A stretch of 64,000 nt of DNA from a virus (lineage: Duplodnaviria; Heunggongvirae; Uroviricota; Caudoviricetes), in IMG/VR virus record IMGVR_UViG_2706794662_000007; one strand, written 5' to 3'. Below are positions 3,206 to 55,321 of the stretch, one piece after another. Position 1 is the first letter of the stretch. Each line of letters begins with the position of its first letter. The notes under the pieces are model-generated. The model was given only the letters and a program-made list of their open reading frames with translations. It ran no database searches and was not told where the DNA came from. A program made the position numbers and the translations under genes.

Positions 3206-3870
3206 GCAGCCATCTCCCCGGAAGAGATTTTCTCCGCATATGCCACAAATGCGTCTACCCCGCTTTCTCCCGTCATTTCTTCCATGTGGGCAAGCAAATC
3301 ACCAACAACAATGGCAGAGCCAGCAGGAAGCGTTTTAAAGCCCAATACGTCGACAACACGTACTTCTTCCGCTGCAACTTCACGACTGATCTCGGTGTGT
3401 TCATCCTTCTGTCGTTTAGTTTCTTCGCCAAGATCGATAACTAGCGAGTCGGTGTCCATTTCTTCTGTCATACTGCCAACGAGAACATTCAACTCACGCT
3501 CTTCGAAGCCGAAAACCTCGATATCGTCCAGAACAAGCGACTCAAGCTCTTTCTGTAGCTTAATTGCATCGTAATCAATGCTGGCAAGTCGGTTATCTTC
3601 AAGGCGCTTCGCACGAACCTCGTCATCACTGAGATCATCGCGAACAATAACCGGTACACGCTCAAGTCCAGCAAAAATTGCAGCCTCACGACGGCCGTGG
3701 CCAGTAATAATTACGTCGTTCTTATCGACCGTAATTGGCTGGTCAAATCCGCGCTTTTTAATGGCTGCGGCCAGATCTCTGATCTGCTGTTCATCATGCT
3801 TTTTGGCATTCATCTCATAGGGAATAAGATCTGCCGGGTCGCGATATACGATTTCAAACTTTTTGGTCAT
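3202..3870 (-). CDS. ParB N-terminal domain (ParB/Srx-like nuclease fold) protein
   Basis: ParB-NTD motif ITGHGRREAA; start moved to internal ATG (M12 of track ORF) that overlaps upstream stop as TAATG with GGAG ribosome-binding site. Confidence 0.65.
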   Translation of the reverse strand: MTKKFEIVYRDPADLIPYEMNAKKHDEQQIRDLAAAIKKRGFDQPITVDKNDVIITGHGRREAAIFAGLERVPVIVRDDLSDDEVRAKRLEDNRLASIDYDAIKLQKELESLVLDDIEVFGFEERELNVLVGSMTEEMDTDSLVIDLGEETKRQKDEHTEISREVAAEEVRVVDVLGFKTLPAGSAIVVGDLLAHMEEMTGESGVDAFVAYAEKISSGEMAA

Positions 3871-4568
3871 TACATACGCTCCTTGTAGTAGTCGACCAGC
3901 CACACCAGAGCCTCACCAGCGTTCTCCATTTCATTACCGGTGTTAATAGCCTGCTCTTTGATGATGTTTTTTATGGTTTCTGCAACACGATCTGACGCAT
4001 CGAAAGTTACTTTGAAGCGCATGGTCTGATGTTCCGCCCCCACACGTTCGGTTTTCTCTCGTTTGTCGGTATCGACAGGCTCATCACTACCACGAGACAA
4101 CGCCTCCAGTGCTTCAAGGTCGATTGCCGCCTCTTTTGCTAAAACCATCGAGATTTCGTCGTCATACGGGGCGATTTCAGACAGTTGATAGTCAAGTTCT
4201 GACTGAATTTCTTCAATGAAGCGTTGCAATGCGATTTGGTCGTCTTCACCGTATCGCTCGTTGTCCACCAGTGACATCTGTTTAGCTACGACATCGCTAA
4301 TTTTGCCCACAGAAAGCACTGGAACCGTTGAAATTCCTTGCTCAATAGCGGCACGCCAGCGATGTTCGCCGCCGAGGATTTCAAAAAATCCATCTTCAAG
4401 TTCACGAGCCAAAATTGGCTTAAAAAAGCCCAATTTTTCGATAGAACCTTTCAGTTTTTCGAAATTCTGCGCACCAACCGAATTGGTGTTCCAGGTATTC
4501 GGGCGAAGGTTGGCAACATCAACCTGCAAAATCGTGATTTTTACGTCCATTTTATTGCTACAATCCAC
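3870..4568 (-). CDS. ParB N-terminal domain protein (paralog of neighbour)
   Basis: ParB-NTD motif ILGGEHRWRAA; first gene of leftward operon; motif B upstream at 4567-4589. Confidence 0.65.
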   Translation of the reverse strand: MDCSNKMDVKITILQVDVANLRPNTWNTNSVGAQNFEKLKGSIEKLGFFKPILARELEDGFFEILGGEHRWRAAIEQGISTVPVLSVGKISDVVAKQMSLVDNERYGEDDQIALQRFIEEIQSELDYQLSEIAPYDDEISMVLAKEAAIDLEALEALSRGSDEPVDTDKREKTERVGAEHQTMRFKVTFDASDRVAETIKNIIKEQAINTGNEMENAGEALVWLVDYYKERM

Positions 4569-4632
4569 TAAGTAATCACTTACTTATTATAATAGCCAAA
4601 TAACATACAAAAGGCACTAAGGAAAGAGGTTT

Positions 4633-6192
4633 ATGACTGTTCGGATTGTATCTAACGCAGTAAATGCGCTTATTTCTGGCGCAGATGACAAGGTAAAGCA
4701 ACTGGTGCAGCAAATGTTGAGCTACGAAGTCGAGGCTGGCGACTGGAAGGGCACAAGCACAATGTTCAACTGGAGCAAAAACTCGTTCCCTGCTGGCTTT
4801 GCCAAGCCCGTGGCGGCTAATTTGAACAAGGCGGGCATCAAATGTGTTCATATCCGCAAAGACAAAGCCCCGGCGCTTGGTAAACCAAATCCGGCGGTTA
4901 ACCCATTCCCATACAATCCTGATTATGCGTATCAGGATCAGACTGTGGAAACACTGGTTCGAGAGGGAATGATGATTGCGCAGATCGCTACTGGTGGCGG
5001 GAAATCTAACGTTGCCTGCAAAGCAGCTGCACGTATCGGTCGAATGACATTATTTTTAACAACCCGCTCTGTTCTGATGTTTCAAATGGCCGAAAACTTC
5101 CAGAGATCCATCGACTACCGCGCCAAAAATGGCGAACCGTGGTTAAAAGACCAAAAGGTTGGAGTCATTGGCTCGGGTGAGTTCCAGGTATCACGACATA
5201 TCAACGTCGCTACAGTTCAAACTCTTGCAAGTTTCCTCGAAGAACCACCACGCGATGCAACACCAGATAAGAAAAGCTACCACCTCAAACGTCGGGAGTT
5301 GGTGAAACGCTTCCTTTCAAGTGTCTCTCTTCTTATTCTGGAAGAGGCGCATGAGTCTTCAGGCTCAAATTTCTATGACATCGCCAGATTATGTGTGAAC
5401 GCAGACTATCGTCTGGCGCTTACAGCCACGCCGTTCATGAAGGATTCGACGGAAGCCAACATGCGCCTGATGGCGGTGGCCGGGCGAATTGAAATTAAAG
5501 TCACAGAAAAGTATCTGATTGATCGAGGCATTCTGGCAAAGCCGTACTTCCTTTATCATAAAGTTGCCTACAAGCCAGACGAGGCCAGAATCAAGGCCGA
5601 ACTTGCCAACAAACACCTCAATTTTAGAGTTGGTATGAGCACCGCCTACCAAAAGGCTTATCAGTTGGGGATCGTGTATAATTTGGGACGTAACGAGGCC
5701 ATTGTGCGCGAAGCATTGCTCTATAAGCAACATTCTCTCAATTGTATGACTCTGGTTCGCCTTAAACGCCACGGGCAAATCCTGATGGAAATGATGAAAG
5801 AGTCCGGCCTTAGAGTTGACTTCATCTATGGGGAATCTAACCAGGCGACAAGGCAAGCAAAGCTGAACAGTTTAGCGTCTGGAGAAATAGATGTTTTAAT
5901 AGGCTCGACTATTCTGGATGTCGGTGTTGATGTGCCAAGCGTTGGTGCGGTCATTCTTGCTGGTGGTGGGAAAGCAGAAGTTGAAATGAGGCAGCGTGTC
6001 GGTCGTGGCTTACGAGCCAAGAAGAATCAGGCAAACGTGTGTTTTATCACTGATTTCATTGACATTAGCAACAAATACCTGTTGTCTCACTCTTATGAGC
6101 GAAAACACATCATCGACACCACACCTGGCTTTGCAGAAGGTGTATTGCCTATTGATGGCGCATTCGATTTTGGAGTTCTGAAACGAGATTAG
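4633..6192 (+). CDS. SF2 (DEAD/DEAH-type) helicase
   Basis: Walker A ATGGGKS, Walker B LILEEAHE, motif III TATP, motif VI QRVGRGLR. Confidence 0.8.
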   Translation: MTVRIVSNAVNALISGADDKVKQLVQQMLSYEVEAGDWKGTSTMFNWSKNSFPAGFAKPVAANLNKAGIKCVHIRKDKAPALGKPNPAVNPFPYNPDYAYQDQTVETLVREGMMIAQIATGGGKSNVACKAAARIGRMTLFLTTRSVLMFQMAENFQRSIDYRAKNGEPWLKDQKVGVIGSGEFQVSRHINVATVQTLASFLEEPPRDATPDKKSYHLKRRELVKRFLSSVSLLILEEAHESSGSNFYDIARLCVNADYRLALTATPFMKDSTEANMRLMAVAGRIEIKVTEKYLIDRGILAKPYFLYHKVAYKPDEARIKAELANKHLNFRVGMSTAYQKAYQLGIVYNLGRNEAIVREALLYKQHSLNCMTLVRLKRHGQILMEMMKESGLRVDFIYGESNQATRQAKLNSLASGEIDVLIGSTILDVGVDVPSVGAVILAGGGKAEVEMRQRVGRGLRAKKNQANVCFITDFIDISNKYLLSHSYERKHIIDTTPGFAEGVLPIDGAFDFGVLKRD

Positions 6193-9579: not shown

Positions 9580-9843
9580 NNNNNNNNNNNNNNNNNNNNN
9601 NNNNNNNNNNNNNNNNNNNNNNNNNNNNNNNNNNNNNNNNNNNNNNNNNNNNNNNNNNNNNNNNNNNNNNNNNNNNNNNNNNNNNNNNNNNNNNNNNNNN
9701 NNNNNNNNNNNNNNNNNNNNNNNNNNNNNNNNNNNNNNNNNNNNNNNNNNNNNNNNNNNNNNNNNNNNNNNNNNNNNNNNNNNNNNNNNNNNNNNNNNNN
9801 NNNNNNNNNNNNNNNNNNNNNNNNNNNNNNNNNNNNNNNNNNN
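9580..9843. other. N-run (masked or unresolved sequence)
   Basis: 264 consecutive n. Confidence 1.
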
Positions 9844-11049: not shown

Positions 11050-11126
11050 GATGGTTTCCTTATCAAGTTGCTTTCAGTGAAAGCATTTTCACAAATCAGA
11101 TAAGGCAGAAAACAAATTGTTATCGG

Positions 11127-12841: not shown

Positions 12842-14412
12842 CTCTTCATCCTCACTTCGTTTCTATAACGTCTAAATATGCTGTTTACTTGTTGGTGTTA
12901 TTATCGCAATAAGATAAAGGCGAAAAAGGATTTTATGTCGGGAAAGCCAGGCTGGGCAGTGAATATCCGGGAACGACACGAGAGCCAGTATTTACGATAT
13001 TCTGCTCTACGCGCGCCGCGGGGCTGGTGGGTAGAATAATCCTCTCCCCGAAAACCTACTGAAATCGATTGTGACCCGCTGGCTGTCTGGCACAATTACG
13101 CTGTATCTGGCATTCAGAGGGAATCCAGCGGTAAGCAAGTCAGCCTGCACGTGAGCGCCTCTCTTCTTCCCGCACATTACAGGTGGGTAGCTGCAACTCT
13201 CTCTCTCTCGCTATACCGGTACGCCGCCGTTCCAGAACCGGCATCGAGCCTTTTCCCGAAATCCACACAGGCAACTCGACCGTTTCCCTGAAAATCCCCA
13301 GCCGTTCCCCCGAAGGCAACCCAGCCGTTTCTGTAGCTGGATGCAACCTTTTCCCTGTATGGACCGAAGGCTGACCGTAGGGGGTGTTACGGGGGATAAA
13401 ATCAGGAGTTGAATAAATACGAAAAAGGAGGCGACCCCCCTCCTTCCCTCTCCACTTATACATACCTGGCTTCTTCGCTATACATGTTGTGTTTTATCTG
13501 TCTCAACCTCTCTATAGGCGTTAATGCTCACTCCTTCCAGAATGTTCTATACGGCGACTATTTCTGTTGGTGAATTGGGTGTGTTGTTTTCTCTGTCGGT
13601 GTATGTGGTTTCGTTAGTTTTGCGGTGGTTCTTCTATGGGGGTGTTCTCGTCGTTTTGGTGATTGTTCTTCTCCGTGTATGGAGTAATGGCAGGTGGGCG
13701 ATTGCTTTCGTTATTGTGTTTGAGTTGTTTGTCTGGAGTGTGTGAAGGCTTTTGTAGTTATTCGTGTATTGGGTAATGGCGTTTCCCGTGATTGTTATGT
13801 TTCGTGTCTTTTGGGATTGAGAGAAACCTTGCGGTTACAGGCTTCGTTAGGGTTTCAGCGGTTCAGGTGTTTCTTCGCTGTTTGGGTAATGGCGTGTCGT
13901 GGGTATCGCGCGTATGAATGTTTTCGGATTGCCTGTGAAAGTTAGGTTGGTTGTCCGGTAGCCTGGGGAGAAGAGGTGGGTCTTTTCGGTAGCCTGCCAT
14001 AAAGAGGTTGGTTGTTTTGGGTAATGGCATATGTGTTATTTGGTTGTTTTGTTATGCCTGAAAATAAGTTGTTTATATGGTTGTGTAACGCAACGGGAGC
14101 GATTTTGAGCGTGTGTTTTTGTTGGTAGTGTGTTGAGTCGTCTGTGGTGAAATTTGGACGCTGTGGCGCTATCTGCTGCGTAGAATTACGGGTATAAGAA
14201 GTGATGTGTGATAACGTCAATTTTTTAGACCAAATCGGGAGAAAGCGTTGATGTTTCGTTGATCTGTTATTTAGTTGTTTTCTTATTGGTATAAACAACC
14301 ATAACCTATTGATATTTAATGATGTGATTGCTGGTATGGGAGGGTAGTAGTGGCGATCAACGGGTTCTTATAGAAAAGAATCAAATTGTGACCGCCATTA
14401 TCAACGGTTTGA

Positions 14413-14598
14413 TTAGATGAGATGGTCTAATTCATCATCTATCATGGCTTTGACGCTGGAGTCGTTCACTCCATATTTATTTATGAGCTGTTTCAGCTCT
14501 GTCGAAAACTGAAGGTAGATATCGTGAGCGTTTTTCACTGTAGGTTCAACGCCACTCATTTCAAGCGCCTTTAGTAGATATGAGTCTTCTTTAAGCAT
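14413..14598 (-). CDS. hypothetical protein
   Basis: 61 aa ORF. Confidence 0.35.
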   Translation of the reverse strand: MLKEDSYLLKALEMSGVEPTVKNAHDIYLQFSTELKQLINKYGVNDSSVKAMIDDELDHLI

Positions 14599-14634
14599 AA
14601 ATTCTCCGTTATCTAGTATGAAGCGATTGCCGGA

Positions 14635-14934
14635 TTACCATTGCCAGCACTCAAGCCCTTCAACGACCGGTGCGCCACAATCAAAATGTACAGAGTTAAA
14701 GCCTACATCAAGTACTTTCTGAATGTTCGCAATCGCACCCTCGGATATACCATATCGACGCAACTCATCTTTCCAGTCATCGTCCTGTAACCCGGCGTGG
14801 ACAATGCAACCGTACTCAATTTGTGAAACCCAATCCAGCTCATTGCTTGCGATCATGAATCGGCGAGCATCTTCCTCTGATGTATGAGATGAACTGATCA
14901 ATGCCACCTGGTAGGCTTGGGTAATGTTCAACAT
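14635..14934 (-). CDS. hypothetical protein
   Basis: 99 aa ORF; two motif A copies upstream (14947-14963, 14997-15014). Confidence 0.4.
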   Translation of the reverse strand: MLNITQAYQVALISSSHTSEEDARRFMIASNELDWVSQIEYGCIVHAGLQDDDWKDELRRYGISEGAIANIQKVLDVGFNSVHFDCGAPVVEGLECWQW

Positions 14935-15045
14935 TTCAACTACTCCAAAACAAGTTGTTTTCTTATGTGGCTTATTATCTCAATCAACAAAAGGTAGAAA
15001 ACAAATTGTTTTAGGGCTTGTGTAAATCAGGAGGGATTGTGTCTA

Positions 15046-15076
15046 TATGAAAATGCCCGGCGTGTTGCCGGGCATT
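15046..15076 (-). terminator. metG rho-independent terminator
   Basis: atgcccggcaacacgccgggcat hairpin followed by T-run on minus strand, just after metG stop. Confidence 0.6.
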
Positions 15077-15095
15077 GCGAAGAGAGGTTGTTTAA

Positions 15096-17034
15096 TTACT
15101 TAACCTGGTGGCCAGGTTTAGCACCAGCATCCGGGCTTAACAGGAAGATATCTTTCCCGCCAGGACCGGCAGCCATCACCATGCCTTCAGAGATACCGAA
15201 GCGCATTTTACGTGGTGCCAGGTTAGCCACCATAATGGTGTGACGACCAATCAGTGCCTGTGGATCTGGATAAGCGGAACGGATGCCTGAGAAGACATTA
15301 CGCTTTTCACCACCGAGATCCAGCGTCAGGCGAAGCAGTTTGTCAGAACCTTCGACAAACTCCGCGTTTTCAATCAGCGCCACACGCAGGTCAACTTTGG
15401 CGAAGTCGTCAAAGGTGATGGTTTCCTGAATCGGTTCGTCAGCCAGTGGGCCAGTTACCGGTGCAGCTGTGGCTTTCACTTCTTCTTTGGATGCTTCCAC
15501 CAGTGCTTCCACCTGTTTCATATCGATACGGTTATACAGTGCCTTGAACGGATTCACTTTATGGCCCAGAAGCGGTTGCTGGATACCATCCCAGGTCAGT
15601 TCTGTATTCAGGAATGCTTCTGCACGTTCAGTCAGTTTCGGCAGTACCGGTTTCAGGTACGTCATCAGCACGCGGAACAGGTTAATGCCCATAGAGCAAA
15701 TCGCCTGCAGATCTGCATCGCGACCTTCCTGCTTCGCCACCACCCACGGAGCCTGTTCATCGACATAGCGATTAGCCAGGTCAGCCAATGCCATGATTTC
15801 ACGGATAGCTTTACCAAATTCGCGGCTTTCCCATGCTTCGCCAATCACTTCAGCGGCATCAGTAAAGGTTTTGTACAGTTGCGGGTCAGCCAGTTCGCTT
15901 GTCAGCACGCCGTCAAAACGCTTGTTGATAAAGCCTGCATTACGGGAGGCCAGGTTAACCACTTTGTTCACGATATCGGCATTCACGCGCTGAACGAAAT
16001 CTTCCAGGTTGAGATCGATATCATCAATGCGCGAAGAGAGTTTCGCAGTGTAGTAGTAACGCAGGCTGTCAGCGTCAAAATGATTCAGCCAGGTGCTGGC
16101 TTTAATAAAGGTGCCGCGAGACTTGGACATCTTCGCGCCGTTCACCGTCACATAGCCGTGAACAAACAGGTTGGTCGGCTTGCGGAAGTTGCTGCCTTCC
16201 AGCATGGCAGGCCAGAACAGACTGTGGAAGTAAACGATATCTTTGCCGATGAAGTGGTACAGCTCGGCGGTGGAGTCTTTCTTCCAGTATTCGTCGAAGC
16301 TTACGCTGTCGCCGCGCTTGTCGCACAGATTCTTGAAAGAACCCATGTAGCCAATCGGCGCGTCCAGCCAGACGTAGAAATATTTGCCCGGCGCGTTCGN
16401 NNNNNNNNNNNNNNNNNNNNNNNNNNNNNNNNNNNNNNNNNNNNNNNNNNNNNNNNNNNNNNNNNNNNNNNNNNNNNNNNNNNNNNNNNNNNNNNNNNNN
16501 NNNNNNNNNNNNNNNNNNNNNNNNNNNNNNNNNNNNNNNNNNNNNNNNNNNNNNNNNNNNNNNNNNNNNNNNNNNNNNNNNNNNNNNNNNNNNNNNNNNN
16601 NNNNNNNNNNNNNNNNNNNNNNNNNNNNNNNNNNNNNNNNNNNNNNNNNNNNNNNNNNNNNNNNNNNNNNNNNNNNNNNNNNNNNNNNNNNNNNNNNNNN
16701 NNNNNNNNNNNNNNNNNNNNNNNNNNNNCTCTTCGCTGTGCGTCGAGTGATAGTTGTCATAGCTGATGTTAAAGCCTGCGAAATCAGTCTGATGTTCCTG
16801 ACTCATTTCGCCAATCATCTGTTCCGGTGTGATACCAAGCTGCTGTGCTTTCAGCATGATTGGCGTACCGTGGGCATCGTCGGCACAGATGAAATTAACC
16901 TCGTGGCCGCGCATTCGCTGGTAACGAACCCAGACATCAGCCTGGATGTGCTCCAGCATATGGCCGAGGTGGATTGAGCCGTTAGCGTACGGCAGCGCGC
17001 ACGTCACCAGAATTTTCTTCGCGACTTGGGTCAT
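15096..17034 (-). CDS. metG: methionyl-tRNA synthetase (interrupted by N-run 16400-16728)
   Basis: Start [29 protein letters not shown] (HIGH-type motif) and C-terminus ...[24 protein letters not shown] match E. coli MetG as I recall it; the two flanking ORF fragments are in different frames because of the N-run. Confidence 0.95.
16400..16728. other. N-run inside metG
   Basis: 329 n. Confidence 1.
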
Positions 17035-17191
17035 AGTAGGCATTACTTCTTTGTAGTGAAAAGGGGCTTGATAGTAACAAAATGGCCTTATGTCTGCCAT
17101 GTGATAACAGCATTTCTCATAAATGATTAAATGTCGTAGCTGGAGTACACTACAAGGCGACAATTGCGCAAATTAAAATAAAGGAGACGGG

Positions 17192-18292
17192 ATGAGCGAG
17201 TCCAAATCGCCGGATGCCCTGAGAGCAATGGTAGCCGGTACGCTGGCTAATTTTCAGCACCCAACCCTGAAACACAACTTGACTACGCTTAAAGCGTTAC
17301 ACCATGTTGCGTTGATGGATGACACACTGCATGTCGAACTAATCATGCCTTTCGTGTGGAATAAGCCTTTTGAAGACCTGAAAGAGCAATGTAGTGGTGA
17401 TCTGCTCCGTATCACTGGCGCAAAGGCTATTGACTGGAAGCTGTCGTACAACATTGCCACGCTTAAGCGCGTCAAAAACCAACCAGGCATTAATGGCGTT
17501 AAGAACATTATCGCCGTCAGCTCAGGCAAGGGCGGCGTGGGTAAATCCTCCACAGCAGTAAACTTGGCACTGGCTTTGGCTGCTGAAGGTGCGAAAGTTG
17601 GTATTTTGGATGCCGATATCTATGGTCCATCAATTCCAACCATGCTGGGCGCGGAAAACCAACGTCCAACCTCACCGGACGGTACTCACATGGCACCTAT
17701 CATGTCTCATGGCCTGGCAACCAACTCTATTGGTTATCTGGTCACCGATGACAATGCAATGGTGTGGCGTGGACCGATGGCGAGCAAGGCGCTGATGCAG
17801 ATGTTGCAGGAAACACTGTGGCCTGATCTGGACTATCTCGTTCTCGATATGCCACCGGGCACTGGTGATATTCAATTGACGCTGGCGCAGAACATTCCTG
17901 TAACTGGTGCGGTTGTGGTAACTACGCCGCAAGACATCGCGCTGATCGATGCGAAGAAAGGCATTGTGATGTTCGAAAAAGTCGAAGTGCCGGTACTGGG
18001 TATCGTTGAAAACATGAGTGTGCATATTTGCAGTAACTGCGGTCATCACGAGCCAATTTTTGGCACCGGTGGAGCACAGAAACTGGCCGAGAAATACAAC
18101 ACGCAGTTGTTAGGCCAAATGCCACTTCATATCTCTCTTCGTGAAGATCTGGATAACGGAACACCAACCGTTATTAGTCGTCCAGATAGCGAATTTACGG
18201 CTATTTATCGTGACCTCGCAGATCGCGTTGCTGCCCAAATGTATTGGCAAGGTGAAGTAATACCTGGCGAAATCGCATTCCGCGCAGTGTGA
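17192..18292 (+). CDS. apbC: Mrp/ApbC Fe-S cluster carrier ATPase
   Basis: 366 aa; deviant Walker A AVSSGKGGVGKSST and CxxC (CSNCGH); divergent from metG as in the E. coli chromosome. Confidence 0.95.
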   Translation: MSESKSPDALRAMVAGTLANFQHPTLKHNLTTLKALHHVALMDDTLHVELIMPFVWNKPFEDLKEQCSGDLLRITGAKAIDWKLSYNIATLKRVKNQPGINGVKNIIAVSSGKGGVGKSSTAVNLALALAAEGAKVGILDADIYGPSIPTMLGAENQRPTSPDGTHMAPIMSHGLATNSIGYLVTDDNAMVWRGPMASKALMQMLQETLWPDLDYLVLDMPPGTGDIQLTLAQNIPVTGAVVVTTPQDIALIDAKKGIVMFEKVEVPVLGIVENMSVHICSNCGHHEPIFGTGGAQKLAEKYNTQLLGQMPLHISLREDLDNGTPTVISRPDSEFTAIYRDLADRVAAQMYWQGEVIPGEIAFRAV

Positions 18293-18294
18293 TA

Positions 18295-18319
18295 AAAAGG
18301 CGGTGCATTGCACCGCCTA
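18295..18319 (-). terminator. hairpin terminator (T-run on minus strand)
   Basis: ggcggtgcaatgcaccgcc followed by ttttt on minus strand, between apbC stop and UmuD'-like stop. Confidence 0.5.
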
Positions 18320-18329
18320 ATCAGTTCTC

Positions 18330-18719
18330 CTACATCACAGGACAATCATCAAACTCGCCACTTCTTGCGTCGTTGATAATGTGAGTGATCACACCAAACA
18401 CGGCATTGCTGCCCGTGCATCCATCGTCATCCTTTGGCAATGCTTCCTTCTTACCGGTTCTTAAATCCTCCAGATGCTGACGTGGAGACTTCCGGTATCT
18501 TTTTACGCGATATTCCCCATCCAGAGCGCATACAAGCAGAGAACCATCAACCGGGGTAAGTGAGGAATCAACCACCAGCAATGCACCCTGTAATATTCCC
18601 TCACGATGATGACTATCAGCTGCTCTCATGAAGTAGGTCGCTGAAGGATGTCTAATTATCTGCTGATCAAGAGAAATACGGCTCTCAGCATAATCCGCCG
18701 CAGGAGAAGGGAAGCCCAT
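18330..18719 (-). CDS. UmuD'-like S24 peptidase family protein
   Basis: GFPSPAADYAE...HPSATYF...DS...VKRYRK...VFGVITHIIN aligns with the UmuD C-terminal domain and lacks the N-terminal arm, like processed UmuD'; motif A upstream at 18839-18856. Confidence 0.7.
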   Translation of the reverse strand: MGFPSPAADYAESRISLDQQIIRHPSATYFMRAADSHHREGILQGALLVVDSSLTPVDGSLLVCALDGEYRVKRYRKSPRQHLEDLRTGKKEALPKDDDGCTGSNAVFGVITHIINDARSGEFDDCPVM

Positions 18720-18904
18720 AGCGTTTTGCCCTCAATACTGTTCATTTACACAGTATACATGAAAGAAGCTCACTCAGTGCAACTGATCGGTACATAGCAC
18801 CAGACAAAGGAACGTTATTTTCTCGAACAAGAAAAGGTAGAAAACAAATTGTTTAAGGCCACAACTAGTGGCCTTAATGGAGAAGGGATGCTTATTGGCT
18901 ATGG

Positions 18905-19423
18905 CTAAAAATCAAANNNNNNNNNNNNNNNNNNNNNNNNNNNNNNNNNNNNNNNNNNNNNNNNNNNNNNNNNNNNNNNNNNNNNNNNNNNNNNNNNNNN
19001 NNNNNNNNNNNNNNNNNNNNNNNNNNNNNNNNNNNNNNNNNNNNNNNNNNNNNNNNNNNNNNNNNNNNNNNNNNNNNNNNNNNNNNNNNNNNNNNNNNNN
19101 NNNNNNNNNNNNNNNNNNNNNNNNNNNNNNNNNNNNNNNNNNNNNNNNNNNNNNNNNNNNNNNNNNNNNTTTAAAGGAAGATAGGTTCCCCATAGTAGCT
19201 GTCTGCCGTGCGCTCGTGTGAAATACCGGGCCATCTTCGGATTGCTATGCTGCTTAGGAGCGCCTGGTCTGTATGTCTGATACCCGGCCAACATCCCATC
19301 AAACCTGTATAGAGGGAATGTAACAACTCCTTCGCTTTCATCGATCCACTGTCTATATGGATGCACATCATAGCGGTAGTTACGAGTTAGCAAATGAGCT
19401 TCCAGCTTTCCAAATTTAGTCAT
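18905..19423 (-). CDS. hypothetical protein (interrupted by N-run)
   Basis: Start set to MTKFGKLEAH with GAGGGA ribosome-binding site; C-terminal part and frame uncertain. Confidence 0.35.
   Translation of the reverse strand: MTKFGKLEAHLLTRNYRYDVHPYRQWIDESEGVVTFPLYRFDGMLAGYQTYRPGAPKQHSNPKMARYFTRAHGRQLLWGTYLPLXXXXXXXXXXXXXXXXXXXXXXXXXXXXXXXXXXXXXXXXXXXXXXXXXXXXXXXXXXXXXXXXXXXXXXXXXXXXXXXXXXXXXFDF
18917..19169. other. N-run
   Basis: 253 n. Confidence 1.
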
Positions 19424-19436
19424 AACTTCGCATCCC

Positions 19437-20291
19437 TCATAACACTTCCCATTTATCACCATATTTCTCCATAGCTCTTAGCCAATAAACATGGCCACTA
19501 GGCATAGTGATGTGAGGCTCGCCAAACTCTTCTCCATGTACATCAAAGATGTCCCCAACAGAAAATTGGGGGATTTCTGTTCCGTTTTCACCTATATGTG
19601 TAATTCGTATACGTTTCGGTTGGGATTGTCCACCTTTGAGCGAGTTGTTCACTGCTCTGGCAATTTTCTCCCGCAATTGCTGCGTTCCGTGATACGTAAC
19701 CGCAATATCCCGCAACTCATTCACTAGTTCTCGAATTTGGTGATCTTTAAGCTCATTATTTGGGTGATTGGTAACAACTCTGGTTAATTCCCCATTGTCT
19801 TTTGCTCTTACGTATGCAGCTCTTGTGCATTCGCCCCATGTATTACCGCCTACATTAACTTCGTAGATTAGGCTGGACTTATCTGTCAATTCGGAACAAA
19901 TACGGGCCGTGGTCTGGCAACTAGAGCATTCGCAGTTATCGCGGAAACCGTGGTCTACTGGCTTCGGTTTAACATCATCAACTTTTTCTACCCTATTGGA
20001 ATTTAAATACTTCGAAGCCTTGCTATGCCAATCGCTGGTTTTAGGATCTTGTCCATCCATCAAACGCCAGGCTTCAGCTATTAACTCATAACTAGTGACT
20101 GTAGCTTCCTGCGCATCACCAATAAGTCGTGTAATCTCTCTTTCAAGCCGACCGCCTAACTCCGTTTTAGTGCAATGTTCTGACCAATCGCCAGTCTCAA
20201 GAAGCGCGAGAATGCTTAAAATATCGTCCAATAGAACGGTAGTATTATCGACTTCCTTCTGAAACTCACCGGCTACTGATTTATGCATCAT
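19437..20291 (-). CDS. hypothetical protein
   Basis: 284 aa ORF. Confidence 0.5.
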   Translation of the reverse strand: MMHKSVAGEFQKEVDNTTVLLDDILSILALLETGDWSEHCTKTELGGRLEREITRLIGDAQEATVTSYELIAEAWRLMDGQDPKTSDWHSKASKYLNSNRVEKVDDVKPKPVDHGFRDNCECSSCQTTARICSELTDKSSLIYEVNVGGNTWGECTRAAYVRAKDNGELTRVVTNHPNNELKDHQIRELVNELRDIAVTYHGTQQLREKIARAVNNSLKGGQSQPKRIRITHIGENGTEIPQFSVGDIFDVHGEEFGEPHITMPSGHVYWLRAMEKYGDKWEVL

Positions 20292-21475: not shown

Positions 21476-21748
21476 TTAACCCGCAGTGCNNNNNNNNNNN
21501 NNNNNNNNNNNNNNNNNNNNNNNNNNNNNNNNNNNNNNNNNNNNNNNNNNNNNNNNNNNNNNNNNNNNNNNNNNNNNNNNNNNNNNNNNNNNNNNNNNNN
21601 NNNNNNNNNNNNNNNNNNNNNNNNNNNNNNNNNNNNNNNNNNNNNNNNNNNNNNNNNNNNNNNNNNNNNNNNNNNNNNNNNNNNNNNNNNNNNNNNNNNN
21701 NNNNNNNNNNNNNNNNNNNNNNNNNNNNNNNNNNNNNNNAGTTGCCAT
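21476..21748 (-). CDS. hypothetical protein (mostly masked by N-run)
   Basis: ATG at 21748 preceded by conserved junction GGAGAGTGATATG; body is n. Confidence 0.3.
   Translation of the reverse strand: MATXXXXXXXXXXXXXXXXXXXXXXXXXXXXXXXXXXXXXXXXXXXXXXXXXXXXXXXXXXXXXXXXXXXXXXXXXXXXXXXXXXXXTAG
21490..21739. other. N-run
   Basis: 250 n. Confidence 1.
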
Positions 21749-23903: not shown

Positions 23904-24041
23904 GTGTTTTTCTCTTCTTTGCTGTTACATAAGCACTACCAAGTGCTGGTTTATTTTCACAAATAAGAAAATGTAGAAAACAATTTATTTAAGGCCACAA
24001 CTTATGGCCTTTATTTATTCATGCCGAAGGATTTGTAGCGT

Positions 24042-25187: not shown

Positions 25188-26892
25188 TCATTTAACGCGT
25201 TTGAAAACGTATACGCTGACTGTGATCCCTGTGTCTTCAAACTCGTTGGTAAACGACTTCCCTCTGGCATAAACGTAATTATCCATCGTCATCCAGTCCA
25301 GTATTGGCGCNNNNNNNNNNNNNNNNNNNNNNNNNNNNNNNNNNNNNNNNNNNNNNNNNNNNNNNNNNNNNNNNNNNNNNNNNNNNNNNNNNNNNNNNNN
25401 NNNNNNNNNNNNNNNNNNNNNNNNNNNNNNNNNNNNNNNNNNNNNNNNNNNNNNNNNNNNNNNNNNNNNNNNNNNNNNNNNNNNNNNNNNNNNNNNNNNN
25501 NNNNNNNNNNNNNNNNNNNNNNNNNNNNNNNNNNNNNNNNNNNNNNNNNNNNNNNNNNNNNNNNNCCAGATCGGCGTTAATATAGGCCAGAAGATCCCCA
25601 CGTCCGGCTTGAGGCTCCAACAGCTTCTCACCAGGCTTCAATTCAGTGGCTCTGGCAACGTACTCAGCAATCAAGCGTGGGGTAGGGTAGAACTGGTGTG
25701 ATTTTGTATCCGGTATTAAACCGGTAGCCACAATCGTATTTAGCGTATGGCCGATCTCATACGGGAACTGCCAGTGCTTTTTCTCCTGCACGCCGCCAAT
25801 GAAGCTCAGTGTGCGCTCAAGCTCTTCCACCTGCGACTTCTGGAGAGCTGAATCAGAGAAGTACCATACGCCTTTGTCTTTGCTCAATCGCCCGTCACGA
25901 AGCGCAGTGCGAACCGGCACGGAGATCGTCTTCTGGATTAACCCGAACTGCTTTGGTGCCCGTGTTTTTGGCGCAGTTCGGCATGGCGCGGGGATTGCAG
26001 CAGGCATACTGTAAGCCAGCACCTCATTCAACTTCCAGGCCACGTCAGGATGTATTTCAAAGTGAACGTTGCCGTTCTTGAACATCTTCACGCGCATCAG
26101 ATTTCCATCGACGTTCATCCAGTCACCGGTCTGGCAGTCGTTTGCCCGATACGCAGCTGATAGCACCTCAGCAGTGCGGTTGATGGTAATAAATTCTTTG
26201 TGCGCGAAGAAATGAAGCAAGACACGCAGATCGTCGATGTAGTCCTCTTTGCGATAGTTCACGCTAACGCTGTCACGCCAGAAATCAGAAATGCAGTCAG
26301 CGATTATCAGACGCTCGCTGAAACCGTTTGTCTTATTTGTCTTGTGCGCAGGACTCAGCGCCTTAAACAAGCCATACACGCGCTCAGAGAGATATTTGTG
26401 CCTGTCATTCAGCAAATTAAGCATCGTTGGTATGACCGTTTCTGCTTTGAACTCCGGTACACCAACGAACTCTTTAACCTTCATCTGATAGCCGGTTCTG
26501 TCAGTTTTGATGACTTCCTGCTTGCCCTCGATAAATAGCTCACGCCACTCGTCGCGACGGGAAGCTGGCATGATCAGCAGAACGTTAGTCATATCCGTAA
26601 CCTTCCTCCAGTACTCGGCCCAAATATTCTGTTTCACCCATTCCAGATCGACGTTATCCAGCCAGACTCGATTCAAACGTGAGCGATCTTCATCTGGTCG
26701 GTGGTTTAGTCGAAGCAGGCGATTAATCATGTTGTGGCGTTCATCGCCATAAACGAAGTCGTGTACCTGATACATGAAGGAGATCTCTTTCTCGCACTCG
26801 GCCACAATTTCGTGGATGACGTTCATTTCCTGTCGATAGTCGATAGCAGTGTTTGAGCTGGCATCGCCCATGATGGAAAGGGCTGTATTCAT
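25188..26892 (-). CDS. putative N6-adenine DNA methyltransferase with large N-terminal extension (C-terminal part masked)
   Basis: FYPTPRLIAEYV followed by EPQAGRGDLLAYI (motif X then motif I, gamma-class order) just before the N-run; the catalytic (D/N)PPY region would lie in the masked part. Confidence 0.45.
25311..25565. other. N-run
   Basis: 255 n. Confidence 1.
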
Positions 26893-34562: not shown

Positions 34563-35207
34563 CTAATGAACGGTCACTCGACCACAGAACCGGTTTTCTA
34601 TCTTTTCTACAGCGTTATCTAGCATTCTCATCACTGATCTGGCTCTTGCTTCAACCGTGCGATATCGGTTGGAAACGACGAAGGTTTGCAGATCCCCCCT
34701 TTGCGGATGCAGGTGAATTTTTGTCAGTTCCCCGCACATCAACGCATCAATACGAGCGACATACAGACGGTCTAATGATGCTCGTTGTGATCGCAAGTAA
34801 TCTCGCTCTGAGAGAGCGACTCCCGGGCGTAGGCCAGCAATGGCGTTAAAGTTTGAAATAGCAGTTTTGTGGCAAAACTTTTCGATATCGAGGGCTAACT
34901 CAATACATCGATCTTCATTGGTATGGCCGACCAAATCCAACGTGTAGGCCATAACATCAGCAGGTGTGCGATCGATAACAAAGCCTTCAACACCACGCGT
35001 AAGTAGCTCTATATGCTTTGCGATTTCCATTTGAATCTGAAGCCGCTCATATAGAGGCATAGACTCACCTACTCGAACACCGAGTCGGCTCATCAAACTT
35101 CCGACACCAGCATCCACGTAAGGGATTCCGTAATGTTTGTCGATATATTTTGCCAGGGTTGTTTTCCCACTGCCCTGAGCACCAGTGATCCCAATCCGGT
35201 AATCCAT
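34563..35207 (-). CDS. P-loop nucleotide kinase-like protein
   Basis: Walker A GITGAQGSGKTT; sits within nucleotide-metabolism cluster. Confidence 0.5.
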   Translation of the reverse strand: MDYRIGITGAQGSGKTTLAKYIDKHYGIPYVDAGVGSLMSRLGVRVGESMPLYERLQIQMEIAKHIELLTRGVEGFVIDRTPADVMAYTLDLVGHTNEDRCIELALDIEKFCHKTAISNFNAIAGLRPGVALSERDYLRSQRASLDRLYVARIDALMCGELTKIHLHPQRGDLQTFVVSNRYRTVEARARSVMRMLDNAVEKIENRFCGRVTVH

Positions 35208-35683
35208 TACGACCTTCTGTATACGATCTGCGAAAAGCCAGGCTCTTCCTCGCTGGCTCGTTGGGTAAAAACTGTTTCAACAGGCACAAAGCCTAAATTA
35301 CGCATCATGCTTGCCGGGAAGAATGCATCGGCGTTTGGCACATCAACGCCGATGTGGGAGAGCCAAATCTCTTCAACATGCGGCATGAATAGCGAGTAAA
35401 TTTGTTCCCCGCCAATCACCCACACAGGCTCTGGTAATCGCAACACATCATCCACACCAGCAGGGTAGAATCCATTTGGTACAAAGCCATGAGAGCGCGT
35501 CAAAACGAGGTTATGACGCTCTGGAAGAGGGCGTTTGAGACTTTCCATCGTTTTACGCCCCATAACGACAGTGGCGTTTTTGGTGAGTCTCTTAAATAGC
35601 TTCAGATCGGTAGAACAACGCCAGGGCAGTTCGTTCGCTATGCCGATCTCATAGTTACGGCCAACAGCAGCTATCATCTTCAT
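35207..35683 (-). CDS. dihydrofolate reductase
   Basis: IAAVGRNYEIG...LPW...VVMGRKT...LPER...VIGG matches DHFR motifs. Confidence 0.85.
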   Translation of the reverse strand: MKMIAAVGRNYEIGIANELPWRCSTDLKLFKRLTKNATVVMGRKTMESLKRPLPERHNLVLTRSHGFVPNGFYPAGVDDVLRLPEPVWVIGGEQIYSLFMPHVEEIWLSHIGVDVPNADAFFPASMMRNLGFVPVETVFTQRASEEEPGFSQIVYRRS

Positions 35684-43272: not shown

Positions 43273-45195
43273 AGCTGCGCCCCTCTTTAACTTCCAGCGT
43301 AATAGTTTCCCGGAACCATGACTTCATCTCTTTATGGGAGATAATCAGCACAGTACCTCGCTCGCGAGCTTTGGACTCCAGAATACCCATGAGGCGTTCA
43401 AGACCGGCTGTATCGAGTGCATCGTCAATTTCGTCGCCGATAAACAAATCGATGTTTTTACTCGCCCGGTTACTAACCAGATCCTGCAATGCCAAAGAAC
43501 ACGCAATGCGAACCTTCCGCTTCTCACCACCAGAGAGGGTCTGGAACGACTTACTTGAACCTTTCTTCTGCACACTAATGTTGAATTTGTCGCGATACTC
43601 ACCTTTTTTGGTGACATCCATCGTCGACCACTCAGCAGTAATATTCCCGTCAGACAACGTATTGAGATACTCGGCAGTGCGTGTATTCAGGAAAGGCGTA
43701 ACAGACGTCAAAATATGAGAACGCACCCCGGCAGGAGAGTAGACCTGACGAGCTTTTTCCAATAGCAACGTTTGTTCCTGAATAGCCTTCAACTCATCTT
43801 TTAAGGACTTGAAGGTAGACTTACTGGATACCAGGTTATCTTCGTGTCTGGCGATAAGAGCAATAAACGGATTAATCTCTTTTGATATACGATCGACCTC
43901 AGTACGAGCACGAGTCACAAGAGACTCAATAGCAACAATCTCCTTCTCACGATGACGCAAAGATGAGAGTTGTTTCGTAAGCTCTTCAATCCGGGCAATG
44001 ATAGCCGTTACATCAGGTGTCGTTTTAACAAGGGCAGACTCAATGCTTAACGCTTTCTCAAGATTCGTTTTGTGTTTAGCCATTGCCTCTGCAAGTGTCT
44101 TCGCCTGACCAATTTCCTGACGTGCTTGTTCAATGAAATTCTCCTTCACCGTTGATAGATCTTCTTCGCAGTAGGCTTTGCCACAAGTAGGGCATGGTGA
44201 TCCCACTTTAGTACCAACCTCTTCTGCTTTGGTCTTAAAATTACGCGCGCGGTTCATTGCATCAGCCTGACTATTTTCTGTAGCTTTGATGCTTGCCCGA
44301 ATATCAGTTATCGCACCACGAACNNNNNNNNNNNNNNNNNNNNNNNNNNNNNNNNNNNNNNNNNNNNNNNNNNNNNNNNNNNNNNNNNNNNNNNNNNNNN
44401 NNNNNNNNNNNNNNNNNNNNNNNNNNNNNNNNNNNNNNNNNNNNNNNNNNNNNNNNNNNNNNNNNNNNNNNNNNNNNNNNNNNNNNNNNNNNNNNNNNNN
44501 NNNNNNNNNNNNNNNNNNNNNNNNNNNNNNNNNNNNNNNNNNNNNNNNNNNNNNNNNNNNNNNNNNNNNNNNNNNNNNNNNNNNNNGATTGTCGACTCCA
44601 ATTTGGTTTTAACCACATCCATACGTGCGGCAGCTGCATTAGCTCGCTCACGAGCAATAGCGTAGGCGCGTGTCAGTCTGTCAACGCCAGCGGCTTCTTC
44701 TACGATGGTTTTGAGGTTTTTGTCGGACATTCCAGGTAAATCTGGCATAGCTTCTTGGCTCGCATAGATGGAAGCCATGAAAACCTCTTTAGATGCACCG
44801 ATCAGACGCTCGACGAACTCTTGCGTCAGCGCATCTTTGCCTTTCGTCATATCGCCGTCTTCACCACGAACGATAAGCCGATTTTTGAACTCTTTGTGTT
44901 TACGGTGACGAATGATCGCATATCTCTTGCCTTCATCCTCGATGGTTACTGCAACACGACAGTTCTTTTCATGGTCGGTAGACAACACATCGTCACCCTT
45001 CACACCATGAGCTGTTTCGCCATAAAGACACCACATCAGGCTATTCATTAGCGTTGACTTTCCAGAGCCATTACTTGATGCGGAACTATCATCACTATTA
45101 ACACCCTGAATGAGCACTAAACCACGCTGATCTAACTCGACCTCCGCGCTGGCGATAGCCATAAAATTCTCAACCTGGAGCTTTAAAAACTTCAT
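43262..45195 (-). CDS. SbcC/Rad50-like ATPase (gp46-like), interrupted by N-run 44324-44586
   Basis: N-terminal Walker A GSNGSGKST; C-terminal signature LSGGEKRK and Walker B LFIGDEID; coiled-coil middle. Confidence 0.8.
44324..44586. other. N-run
   Basis: 263 n. Confidence 1.
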
Positions 45196-54230: not shown

Positions 54231-55321
54231 TTACTCTTCTACTGACTCGGTGGGGTTGTCTTTTGCTCTTCGGTCGTCGATTGCCTGCAAAGCCGCAATG
54301 ATTTCAGCCAGTGGCTTCTCCCGATACATCTCGACGATCTGCGATTTGGTGTATTTCTTGTCACCAATTTCAACTCGCCCGCTGGCGTTCTTTGGCAGGT
54401 ATCCTTCTTCCAGCATGTACTCGACGAGCGATTCGATAACGTCGAGGCCACGAGTAGGATCGAAGTAGAATTTCCAGGTGCATTTGCCATACGGTGGTGC
54501 AACTTTGTTTTTGATGCATTCTGCGCCTACGTCCTGGCCGATCTTCTCTTTACCATCCTTCATCACCGATGCACCAAGACGGATACGTACAGAAGCGTAG
54601 AACTTCGGTGAATCTCCACCTGGAGACGTAGTAGGGTCGCCAAACATTACACCGATTTTTGTGCGAACCTGATTCAAGAAGATGATGCAGGCGTTGTATT
54701 TGCGTGCCCACAAAGCCAGAGTAGGGAAGTTCGCACTTGTCGCACGAGCCAGTGCCGTATTGTCGTTCATGTTTAGCTGATCTTTGTCTTTGGCAGTGCC
54801 TTCAGCCATCTTTTCGAACTTCTCGGCTTTGGAGTTCGGAACCATAGACGCAAGTGAGTCAGCCACGATACAGATAGGTGCTGATTCAGGAATAAGCTCT
54901 TCATCACGTACCAATTTAAGAATTGTGCCGATCAACTCTACAGAGTCTTCGAAGGTATCAGGCTGCTTGTATACCCACTGACCGTCATCCTCATCTGCAT
55001 TCAAACCATTGGCTACAGCCAGGCCAACGTCAAAACTGTTCTCATGATCGAGGANNNNNNNNNNNNNNNNNNNNNNNNNNNNNNNNNNNNNNNNNNNNNN
55101 NNNNNNNNNNNNNNNNNNNNNNNNNNNNNNNNNNNNNNNNNNNNNNNNNNNNNNNNNNNNNNNNNNNNNNNNNNNNNNNNNNNNNNNNNNNNNNNNNNNN
55201 NNNNNNNNNNNNNNNNNNNNNNNNNNNNNNNNNNNNNNNNNNNNNNNNNNNNNNNNNNNNNNNNNNNNNNNNNNNNNNNNNNNNNNNNNNNNNNNNNNNN
55301 NNNNNNNNNNNNTTTTGCCAT
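54231..55321 (-). CDS. RecA-family recombinase (UvsX/RecA-like), interrupted by N-run 55055-55312
   Basis: C-terminal part ...IIFLNQVRTKIGVMFGDPTTSPGGDSPKFYASVRIRLG matches the RecA core (loop L2 region); N-terminal ATG at 55321; Walker motifs presumably masked. Confidence 0.8.
55055..55312. other. N-run
   Basis: 258 n. Confidence 1.

Follow-up and report, generated by a model that had tools for sequence, protein, structure and literature searches.

A short reading frame that resembles umuD stands directly against a pair of host-derived genes, metG and apbC, in the DNA of a tailed virus (Caudoviricetes; IMG/VR record IMGVR_UViG_2706794662_000007), of which a stretch of 64,000 nucleotides, here called the window, was analysed. 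Its position raises the question of whether the gene supplies the element with a ready-made accessory subunit for a mutagenic polymerase, or whether it is a remnant of a host operon, a protease or repressor of the S24 type, or a protein that works on other parts of the damage response. The features that bear on this question are collected in Table 1.

Table 1. Positions of the features at and around the humD locus, numbered from the first letter of the window
Feature	Position	Strand	Basis and remarks
humD CDS	18330..18719	-	ORF; matches to NCBIfam NF051876, Pfam PF00717 and PDB 1umu; dN/dS
Shine-Dalgarno-like GAGGG	18729..18733	-	read from the sequence; 9 nt upstream of the ATG
LexA box (predicted)	18736..18755		TACTGTGTAAATGAACAGTA (minus-strand reading); sole ACTGT-N8-ACAGT in 64 kb
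Candidate sigma-70 promoter	18752..18782	-	inferred from sequence; -35 TTGCAC 18782..18777, 19-nt spacer, -10 TATACT 18757..18752
humD intrinsic terminator	18292..18318	-	terminator scan and RNA fold
Upstream terminator	18853..18877	-	terminator scan; RNA fold -16.2 kcal/mol, z = -5.5
Recurring intergenic element copy	18815..18858		direct repeat; core AAAGGTAGAAAACAAATTGTTT with palindrome AAACAA-T-TTGTTT
apbC (mrp)	17192..18292	+	RefSeq annotation of near-identical p09EL50; right-hand gene of the host-derived block
metG	15096..17034	-	ORFs and RefSeq annotation; left-hand gene of the host-derived block; broken by a masked N run

Identity of the gene

The reading frame encodes 129 amino acids, and its span includes the TAG stop. 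The product matches the NCBIfam equivalog model for HumD (NF051876, 'HumD family translesion DNA polymerase') with 218.7 bits against a cut-off of 120, from position 1 to 129 of 129. It also matches Pfam PF00717 (Peptidase_S24; 38.1 bits, cut-off 23.3; 1.4e-9), PHROG 811 ('UmuD-like'; 6e-54) and, over residues 2-118, the UmuD' chains of PDB entry 1umu (5e-23). Scores for two related families fell below their thresholds, at 87.8 bits vs 110 for UmuD proper (NF007621) and 27.9 bits vs 110.95 for LexA (TIGR00498), where the C-terminal domain alone aligns. The features of UmuD proper, which are a score above that cut-off, an arm with a Cys-Gly site and a umuC operon, were not found, and 129 residues leave no room for the N-terminal DNA-binding domain that LexA/CI-type repressors combine with a self-cleaving S24 domain. 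Identical and near-identical proteins are labelled 'HumD family translesion DNA polymerase' in both RefSeq and UniRef. A homologue search returned 562 proteins, and among the best 120 of these nearly all are 126-130 aa long and many carry the name HumD in NCBI and UniRef records.

Five homologues (the window copy and those of P1, Cyrano, PhiR41_1 and p702_18_3) were used to estimate selection, and dN/dS was 0.04-0.07 in all ten pairs, with dS up to 0.98. Judged by these substitution patterns, humD is a real gene and not a chance reading frame, and it is under strong purifying selection. It is an ordinary member of an already named family, carried by a mobile element of a familiar kind: P1 HumD was characterised as early as 1999, and the gene in the window already bears that name in RefSeq and UniRef. 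A preliminary description of this locus had reported a UmuD'-like gene on a mobile element and had proposed an alignment with UmuD and HumD-type proteins as a check. That alignment gave 91% amino acid identity to P1 HumD (YP_006569, also 129 aa) and 54% identity to UmuD over residues 2-79 (42/78). Together with the NF051876 score, the UmuD alignment narrows the earlier description to a HumD-type, pre-truncated homologue of UmuD'.

The element that carries humD

Positions 18250-18900 are 100% identical to E. coli O104:H4 p09EL50 (NC_018651.1), to NZ_CP022085.2 and to 'Escherichia phage CMS-2020a', and on sequence grounds the window is assigned to an SSU5/pHCM2-type phage-plasmid of the p09EL50 type of E. 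coli O104:H4. The annotation of p09EL50 combines virion genes (capsid, portal, terminase, tape measure, tail fibres) with plasmid genes (RepB, ParB) and a set of genes for DNA metabolism (DnaE, RecA, NrdAB, ThyA, DfrA51, ligase, DnaB-like helicase). The whole annotation of this 109-kb near-identical reference plasmid was checked, and neither umuC nor another Y-family polymerase is annotated anywhere on it, so the partner of HumD would have to be the host UmuC. One relative, the SSU5-like phage-plasmid Cyrano (pLF82), has been proven to form virions and responds to ciprofloxacin by induction (PMC9928086). In the literature collection searched, no paper combines the terms SSU5 and UmuD.

The nucleotide-metabolism cluster of the window, with thyA and nrdAB, also holds dfrA51 at about 35150-35630 (NC_018651.1 48176-48652). 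It encodes a trimethoprim-resistant DHFR that was described not long ago from phage-plasmids (PMC12217456).

The N-terminus and the catalytic positions

The alignment with UmuD is ungapped across the N-terminus and sets Gly2 of HumD opposite Gly25 of UmuD, the residue at which UmuD' begins once RecA*-mediated cleavage has taken place. A stop codon lies in frame four codons 5' of the humD ATG, so a longer form with an N-terminal arm cannot be encoded, and the product lacks both the arm and a Cys-Gly or Ala-Gly cleavage site. These two observations bear out the earlier proposal that the protein starts at the position of the processed UmuD' N-terminus.

It had also been proposed that Ser and Lys are retained near the catalytic positions, and in the alignment Ser36 and Lys73 of HumD do fall opposite the catalytic dyad of UmuD, Ser60 and Lys97. 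The GDSM motif of UmuD, however, is degenerate in HumD (A-DSH, one residue shorter), and of the 37 sequences in the family alignment 25 have Ser at the nucleophile position, 11 have Thr and one has Ala, whereas Lys73 is invariant. Since the serine varies across the family, its retention in the window protein says little about catalysis. This variation suggests that catalysis is probably not under selection in the HumD family, and it fits a protein that would no longer need to cleave itself.

The C-terminus and the dimer interface

Past residue 79 the similarity to UmuD is uneven. Only 2 of 26 residues are identical over residues 80-105, 6 of 14 are identical over residues 106-119 (VFGVITHII vs VFGVVIHVV), and residues 120-129 form an extension without a counterpart in UmuD. 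Within the HumD family, however, mean column conservation is highest over residues 106-129 (0.90-0.91), a part that includes the tail ...NDARSGEFDDCPVM, and it drops to 0.63 over residues 80-105, which form a variable linker. The tail has the family form INDxRSGEFDDCPV followed by Met, Ile or Leu in the window protein, P1 HumD, N15 gp26 and phiKO2 gp23, but is absent from UmuD; across the 36 further relatives a few show substitutions in it, and these are just single ones. The earlier statement that the C-terminal 45 residues diverge is thus correct relative to UmuD, above all for residues 80-105, but it does not hold within the HumD family, where no segment is better conserved than residues 106-129. 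What looks like divergence is therefore a signature of the family and no mark of decay.

One further difference concerns the dimer interface. Asp18 (codon 18666-18668, minus strand) is invariant in the 37 HumD sequences and lies opposite Asn41 of UmuD, and the UmuD variant N41D is monomeric yet active (PMC5342242). This suggests that the dimer mode of HumD may differ from that of UmuD'. The C-terminal VFGV strand is kept in HumD, but on this comparison the interface may not be conserved in detail, the additional tail could contribute to it, and HumD may not heterodimerise with UmuD. An AlphaFold2 model built from the 37-sequence alignment (mean pLDDT 52, pTM 0.45) was too poor for the tail to be placed. 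In the host, UmuD-directed ClpXP degradation normally turns Pol V off. An unlikely reading is that HumD proteins are more than plain copies of UmuD', and that Asp18 and the tail together provide a different surface for self-association or for partners, by which HumD would form no heterodimer with UmuD, would escape UmuD-directed ClpXP degradation and would bypass both the delay of cleavage and the shut-off. If this were true, the phage-plasmid would gain a translesion activator that is free of both host timers.

Predicted SOS control and the humD transcript

The predicted LexA box upstream of humD reads TACTGT-N8-ACAGTA, with its CTG beginning 34 nt 5' of the ATG, and the one ACTGT-N8-ACAGT found in the 64-kb window compares with 0.05 expected. 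An equivalent LexA-type box lies 32-62 nt upstream of the gene in 12 of 12 humD homologues, which come from P1-like, SSU5-like and N15/phiKO2-like elements. It is kept in Cyrano and pEA26_1 despite otherwise unrelated upstream DNA, and the P1 and phiKO2 annotations label the corresponding box a LexA site. All homologues examined have GAGG as part of a Shine-Dalgarno-like sequence. The -10 element of the candidate promoter overlaps the LexA box, and P1, PhiR41_1 and Cyrano share both the element and this overlap; a consensus scan did not call this promoter because its spacer exceeds 18 nt.

At its 3' end the gene is followed by an intrinsic terminator with a stem of 9 bp (18318..18298), seven of them G-C pairs, and the tail TTTTATCACA. 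Its fold energy is -18.6 kcal/mol (z = -3.6), and the hairpin of PhiR41_1 humD has a compensatory pair, GGTGG...CCACC. On the other side of humD, the predicted upstream terminator (18877..18853) is read as the end of the toprim-gene transcript, by which humD would be insulated from it. A LexA box of its own and a terminator on either side make humD an insulated cassette of one gene that is predicted to be under SOS control. The list of genes expressed in Cyrano lysogens includes apbC (CYRAN_99), at 9-fold over the local background, but not humD (CYRAN_98) (PMC9928086), which is weakly consistent with repression of humD by LexA. An Rfam scan of positions 13000-20000 gave zero matches.

The junction with metG-apbC and the origin of humD

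The preliminary description had placed the humD terminator directly against the apbC stop codon and had taken this point as the right junction of the host block. Both statements agree with the present data. The U-tract of the terminator (18297..18292) overlaps the apbC stops TGA TAA (18290-18295), and in each of the 5,426 E. coli genomes the homology to chromosomal apbC goes no further than the stop codon (80-82% nucleotide identity), which marks the right junction of the host block. In 80 Enterobacteriaceae species this homology overshoots the stop by no more than 11 nt, and the best of them reaches 83% nucleotide and about 95% amino acid identity. The humD hairpin was not found at the 80 chromosomal apbC loci, with up to 3 mismatches allowed, or in the E. 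coli flank, and humD itself was not found beside chromosomal apbC loci. The possibility that the hairpin is the native terminator of apbC was ruled out by its absence from these 80 loci and from the E. coli flank.

A second E. coli lineage of SSU5-like elements, with about 70% nucleotide identity in the backbone, lacks metG-apbC but has humD at the same place in its backbone, and there the gene lies beside hot and an lxr-like gene as it does in P1. SSU5 itself has neither humD nor metG-apbC. From the presence of humD without metG-apbC in the second lineage, and from the fact that homology to P1 is confined to the cassette, it follows that humD belongs to the cargo of phage-plasmids independently of the host block.

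By the same comparisons, metG-apbC appears as a separate, old capture that was placed beside humD. The pair, which encodes a Met-tRNA synthetase and an Fe-S carrier, is complete and divergent, and with its intergenic region it is arranged as on enterobacterial chromosomes (15096-18292). ApbC is about 95% identical in amino acids but 80-83% identical in nucleotides to the chromosomal copies, a pattern that indicates genes captured long ago and since held under strong purifying selection. At 95% identity or more, metG-apbC is present in about 216 E. coli plasmid records, and apbC is expressed as a moron in Cyrano lysogens (PMC9928086). A donor for the host block was not found among the E. coli genomes and the 80 Enterobacteriaceae species, in which the best match was 83% in nucleotides and about 95% in protein. 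When a synthetic empty-site query, with the flanks joined without metG-apbC-humD, was compared with 72,556 plasmids, no single record matched the two halves as one continuous stretch, and a direct pre-insertion site was thus not found.

Comparison with related systems

P1 HumD is the closest of the classic relatives and has the same Met-Gly-Phe-Pro-Ser-Pro start and C-terminal tail as the window protein. DNA homology of about 85% begins about 45 nt 5' of the ATG, so that it takes in the LexA box and the ribosome-binding site, and runs through the stop codon, with nothing beyond. In P1, as here, humD is a single gene on a phage-plasmid without a umuC partner. The two replicons differ, however, since P1 is a myovirus and the window belongs to an SSU5-like siphovirus phage-plasmid, and so do the neighbours, which are hot-lxr upstream and phd-doc downstream in P1 but a toprim gene upstream and apbC-metG downstream in the window. 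The terminators differ as well, and the humD hairpin of the window was not found downstream of P1 humD. With a dS of about 0.77 between the two genes, a recent transfer is ruled out. In work by McLenigan et al. in 1999 (J Bacteriol 181:7005), P1 HumD reportedly complemented SOS mutagenesis, bound UmuC and RecA*, was a dimer in solution and was poorly expressed. A later source that cites this work describes P1 HumD as an already-activated UmuD (PMC7092418).

N15 gp26 and phiKO2 gp23, UmuD-like proteins from phage-plasmids that are linear, are 69-73% identical to the window protein. They share its length class, the UmuD'-type start, the SGEFDDCPV tail, the upstream LexA box and the downstream terminator, but have Thr instead of Ser at the nucleophile position, and their genes adjoin the sopAB partition genes. 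In phiKO2-type Klebsiella elements the humD homologue is divergent from dinI, which encodes a RecA-filament binder, around a shared LexA box.

With E. coli UmuD/UmuD', the accessory subunit of Pol V (PDB 1umu, 1i4v, 1ay9), HumD has in common the Ser and Lys positions and the VFGV(I/V)xH(I/V) strand. In contrast to UmuD it lacks the 24-residue arm, the cleavage site and the umuC operon, has Asp at the Asn41 position, is unrelated over residues 80-105, where it has a 4-residue insertion, and ends in a 10-residue C-terminal extension. The mucAB, impCAB, rumAB and samAB operons are SOS-regulated mutagenesis operons on plasmids and ICEs (PMC7092418, PMC11541004). They encode a full-length, cleavable UmuD-like protein together with its own Y-family polymerase, whereas the window encodes a pre-truncated accessory subunit alone.

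One E. coli plasmid, p702_18_3, has a P1-type doc-phd-humD arrangement beside an SSU5-type toprim/Ea22 block (segment positions 3446-5602). Upstream of its humD, with the LexA box TACTGTACAGATAAACAGTA, the sequence differs from that of the SSU5-like PhiR41_1 in just the last base before the ATG. These two elements are read as evidence of cassette shuffling between phage-plasmid families.

Function of HumD in the phage-plasmid

HumD is, very probably, an SOS-induced and pre-activated UmuD' that partners the host UmuC, encoded in a stand-alone cassette that is repressed by LexA and bounded by terminators. Family membership and the example of P1 HumD lead us to infer that LexA controls the gene in vivo, that HumD binds UmuC and RecA*, and that the outcome is mutagenic. 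In an undamaged lysogen, host LexA on the box that overlaps the -10 element would keep humD off. Upon DNA damage RecA* would bring about self-cleavage of LexA, and humD would be derepressed alongside the host umuDC operon. RecA*-mediated cleavage is the slow, rate-limiting step for UmuD; HumD does not need it and could thus bind host UmuC without delay. The complex formed at once would be a Pol V-like translesion polymerase, which would copy damaged DNA of both host and phage-plasmid at the price of mutations.

HumD could instead act mainly without UmuC, by binding RecA*, the beta clamp, Pol III alpha, DinB or the RecA or DnaE of the element itself, and in this way tune SOS signalling, recombination or replication. 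p09EL50 does have RecA and DnaE genes of its own, interaction of umuD products with Pol III alpha and beta, DinB and RecA is documented (PMC5342242), the highly conserved family-specific tail suggests an additional partner, and the divergent pairing of humD with dinI in phiKO2-type elements points the same way. However, the link to RecA and DnaE consists of residence on the same replicon, with genes more than 35 kb from humD in p09EL50, the UmuD'-like core is 54% identical to UmuD, and the literature on P1 HumD describes a functional pre-activated UmuD'. A role of this kind as the main activity is therefore quite improbable. 

Still less can be said for an active, self-cleaving S24 protease or a LexA/CI-like repressor, and we give this reading practically no credence. 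It would account for the Peptidase_S24 match, for the alignment of Ser36 and Lys73 with the catalytic dyad and for the name 'LexA family transcriptional regulator' on some homologue records, but it is effectively refuted by an architecture that has no DNA-binding domain, no arm and no Cys-Gly or Ala-Gly site. The LexA model score (27.9 bits vs 110.95), the nucleophile position (S 25, T 11, A 1) and the degenerate GDSM motif count against it as well. Hardly more credible is a decaying remnant, either a 5'-truncated umuD from a broken umuDC operon or a chromosomal piece taken with metG-apbC, even though humD directly adjoins host-derived genes, the first 24 umuD codons are missing and there is no umuC partner. 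A dN/dS of 0.04-0.07, a conserved LexA box, ribosome-binding site and terminator of its own, and a length of 126-130 aa in nearly all of the best 120 of 562 homologues are not what decay would leave, and these conservation data refute it. Moreover, chromosomal apbC loci lack an adjoining humD or hairpin, and humD holds the same backbone position in the SSU5-like lineage that lacks metG-apbC.

All three classic lineages of enterobacterial phage-plasmids, the P1-like, N15/phiKO2-like and SSU5-like, contain HumD cassettes equipped with a LexA box, and a megablast search found humD in 754 of 5,426 complete E. coli genomes (~14%). This suggests that SOS-inducible, cleavage-independent activation of Pol V may be a common trait of extrachromosomal prophages, with a bearing on the mutagenesis that stress brings about during quinolone treatment.

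A recurring intergenic element and other features of the window

The 44-nt repeat copy at 18815-18858 has a twin at 14972-15015 that is 89% identical, and the pair brackets metG-apbC-humD. Its core occurs four times in the window (11101-11122, 14990-15011, 18833-18854 and 23969-23990) vs 0 expected, and twice in the examined segment of Salmonella phage SSU5 (segment positions 5805 and 8522). This recurrence ruled out that the direct repeat is an insertion scar or target-site duplication. In the minus-strand copies inspected (18833 and 23969) the core lies just 3' of a hairpin, and in the copies at 14990 and 18833 it is upstream of the next leftward gene. The element may serve the early leftward units as an operator or promoter, and perhaps also as a site where modules are exchanged by recombination.

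A stretch of about 0.8 kb at ~13560-14330 is strongly G+T-rich on the plus strand, has no convincing ORF and sits inside a CDS-free gap of about 1.5 kb in the RefSeq annotation of p09EL50. It gave no Rfam match and contains a 28-nt repeat (core TTGGGTAATGGC) in four copies set apart from one another, as well as a 31-nt tandem pair. The window also has seven masked runs of N, at 9580-9843, 16400-16728, 18917-19169, 21490-21739, 25311-25565, 44324-44586 and 55055-55312. The run in metG (16400-16728) is 95 nt longer than the p09EL50 sequence it replaces, so the metG frame is broken artificially and appears as two ORF fragments in different frames.
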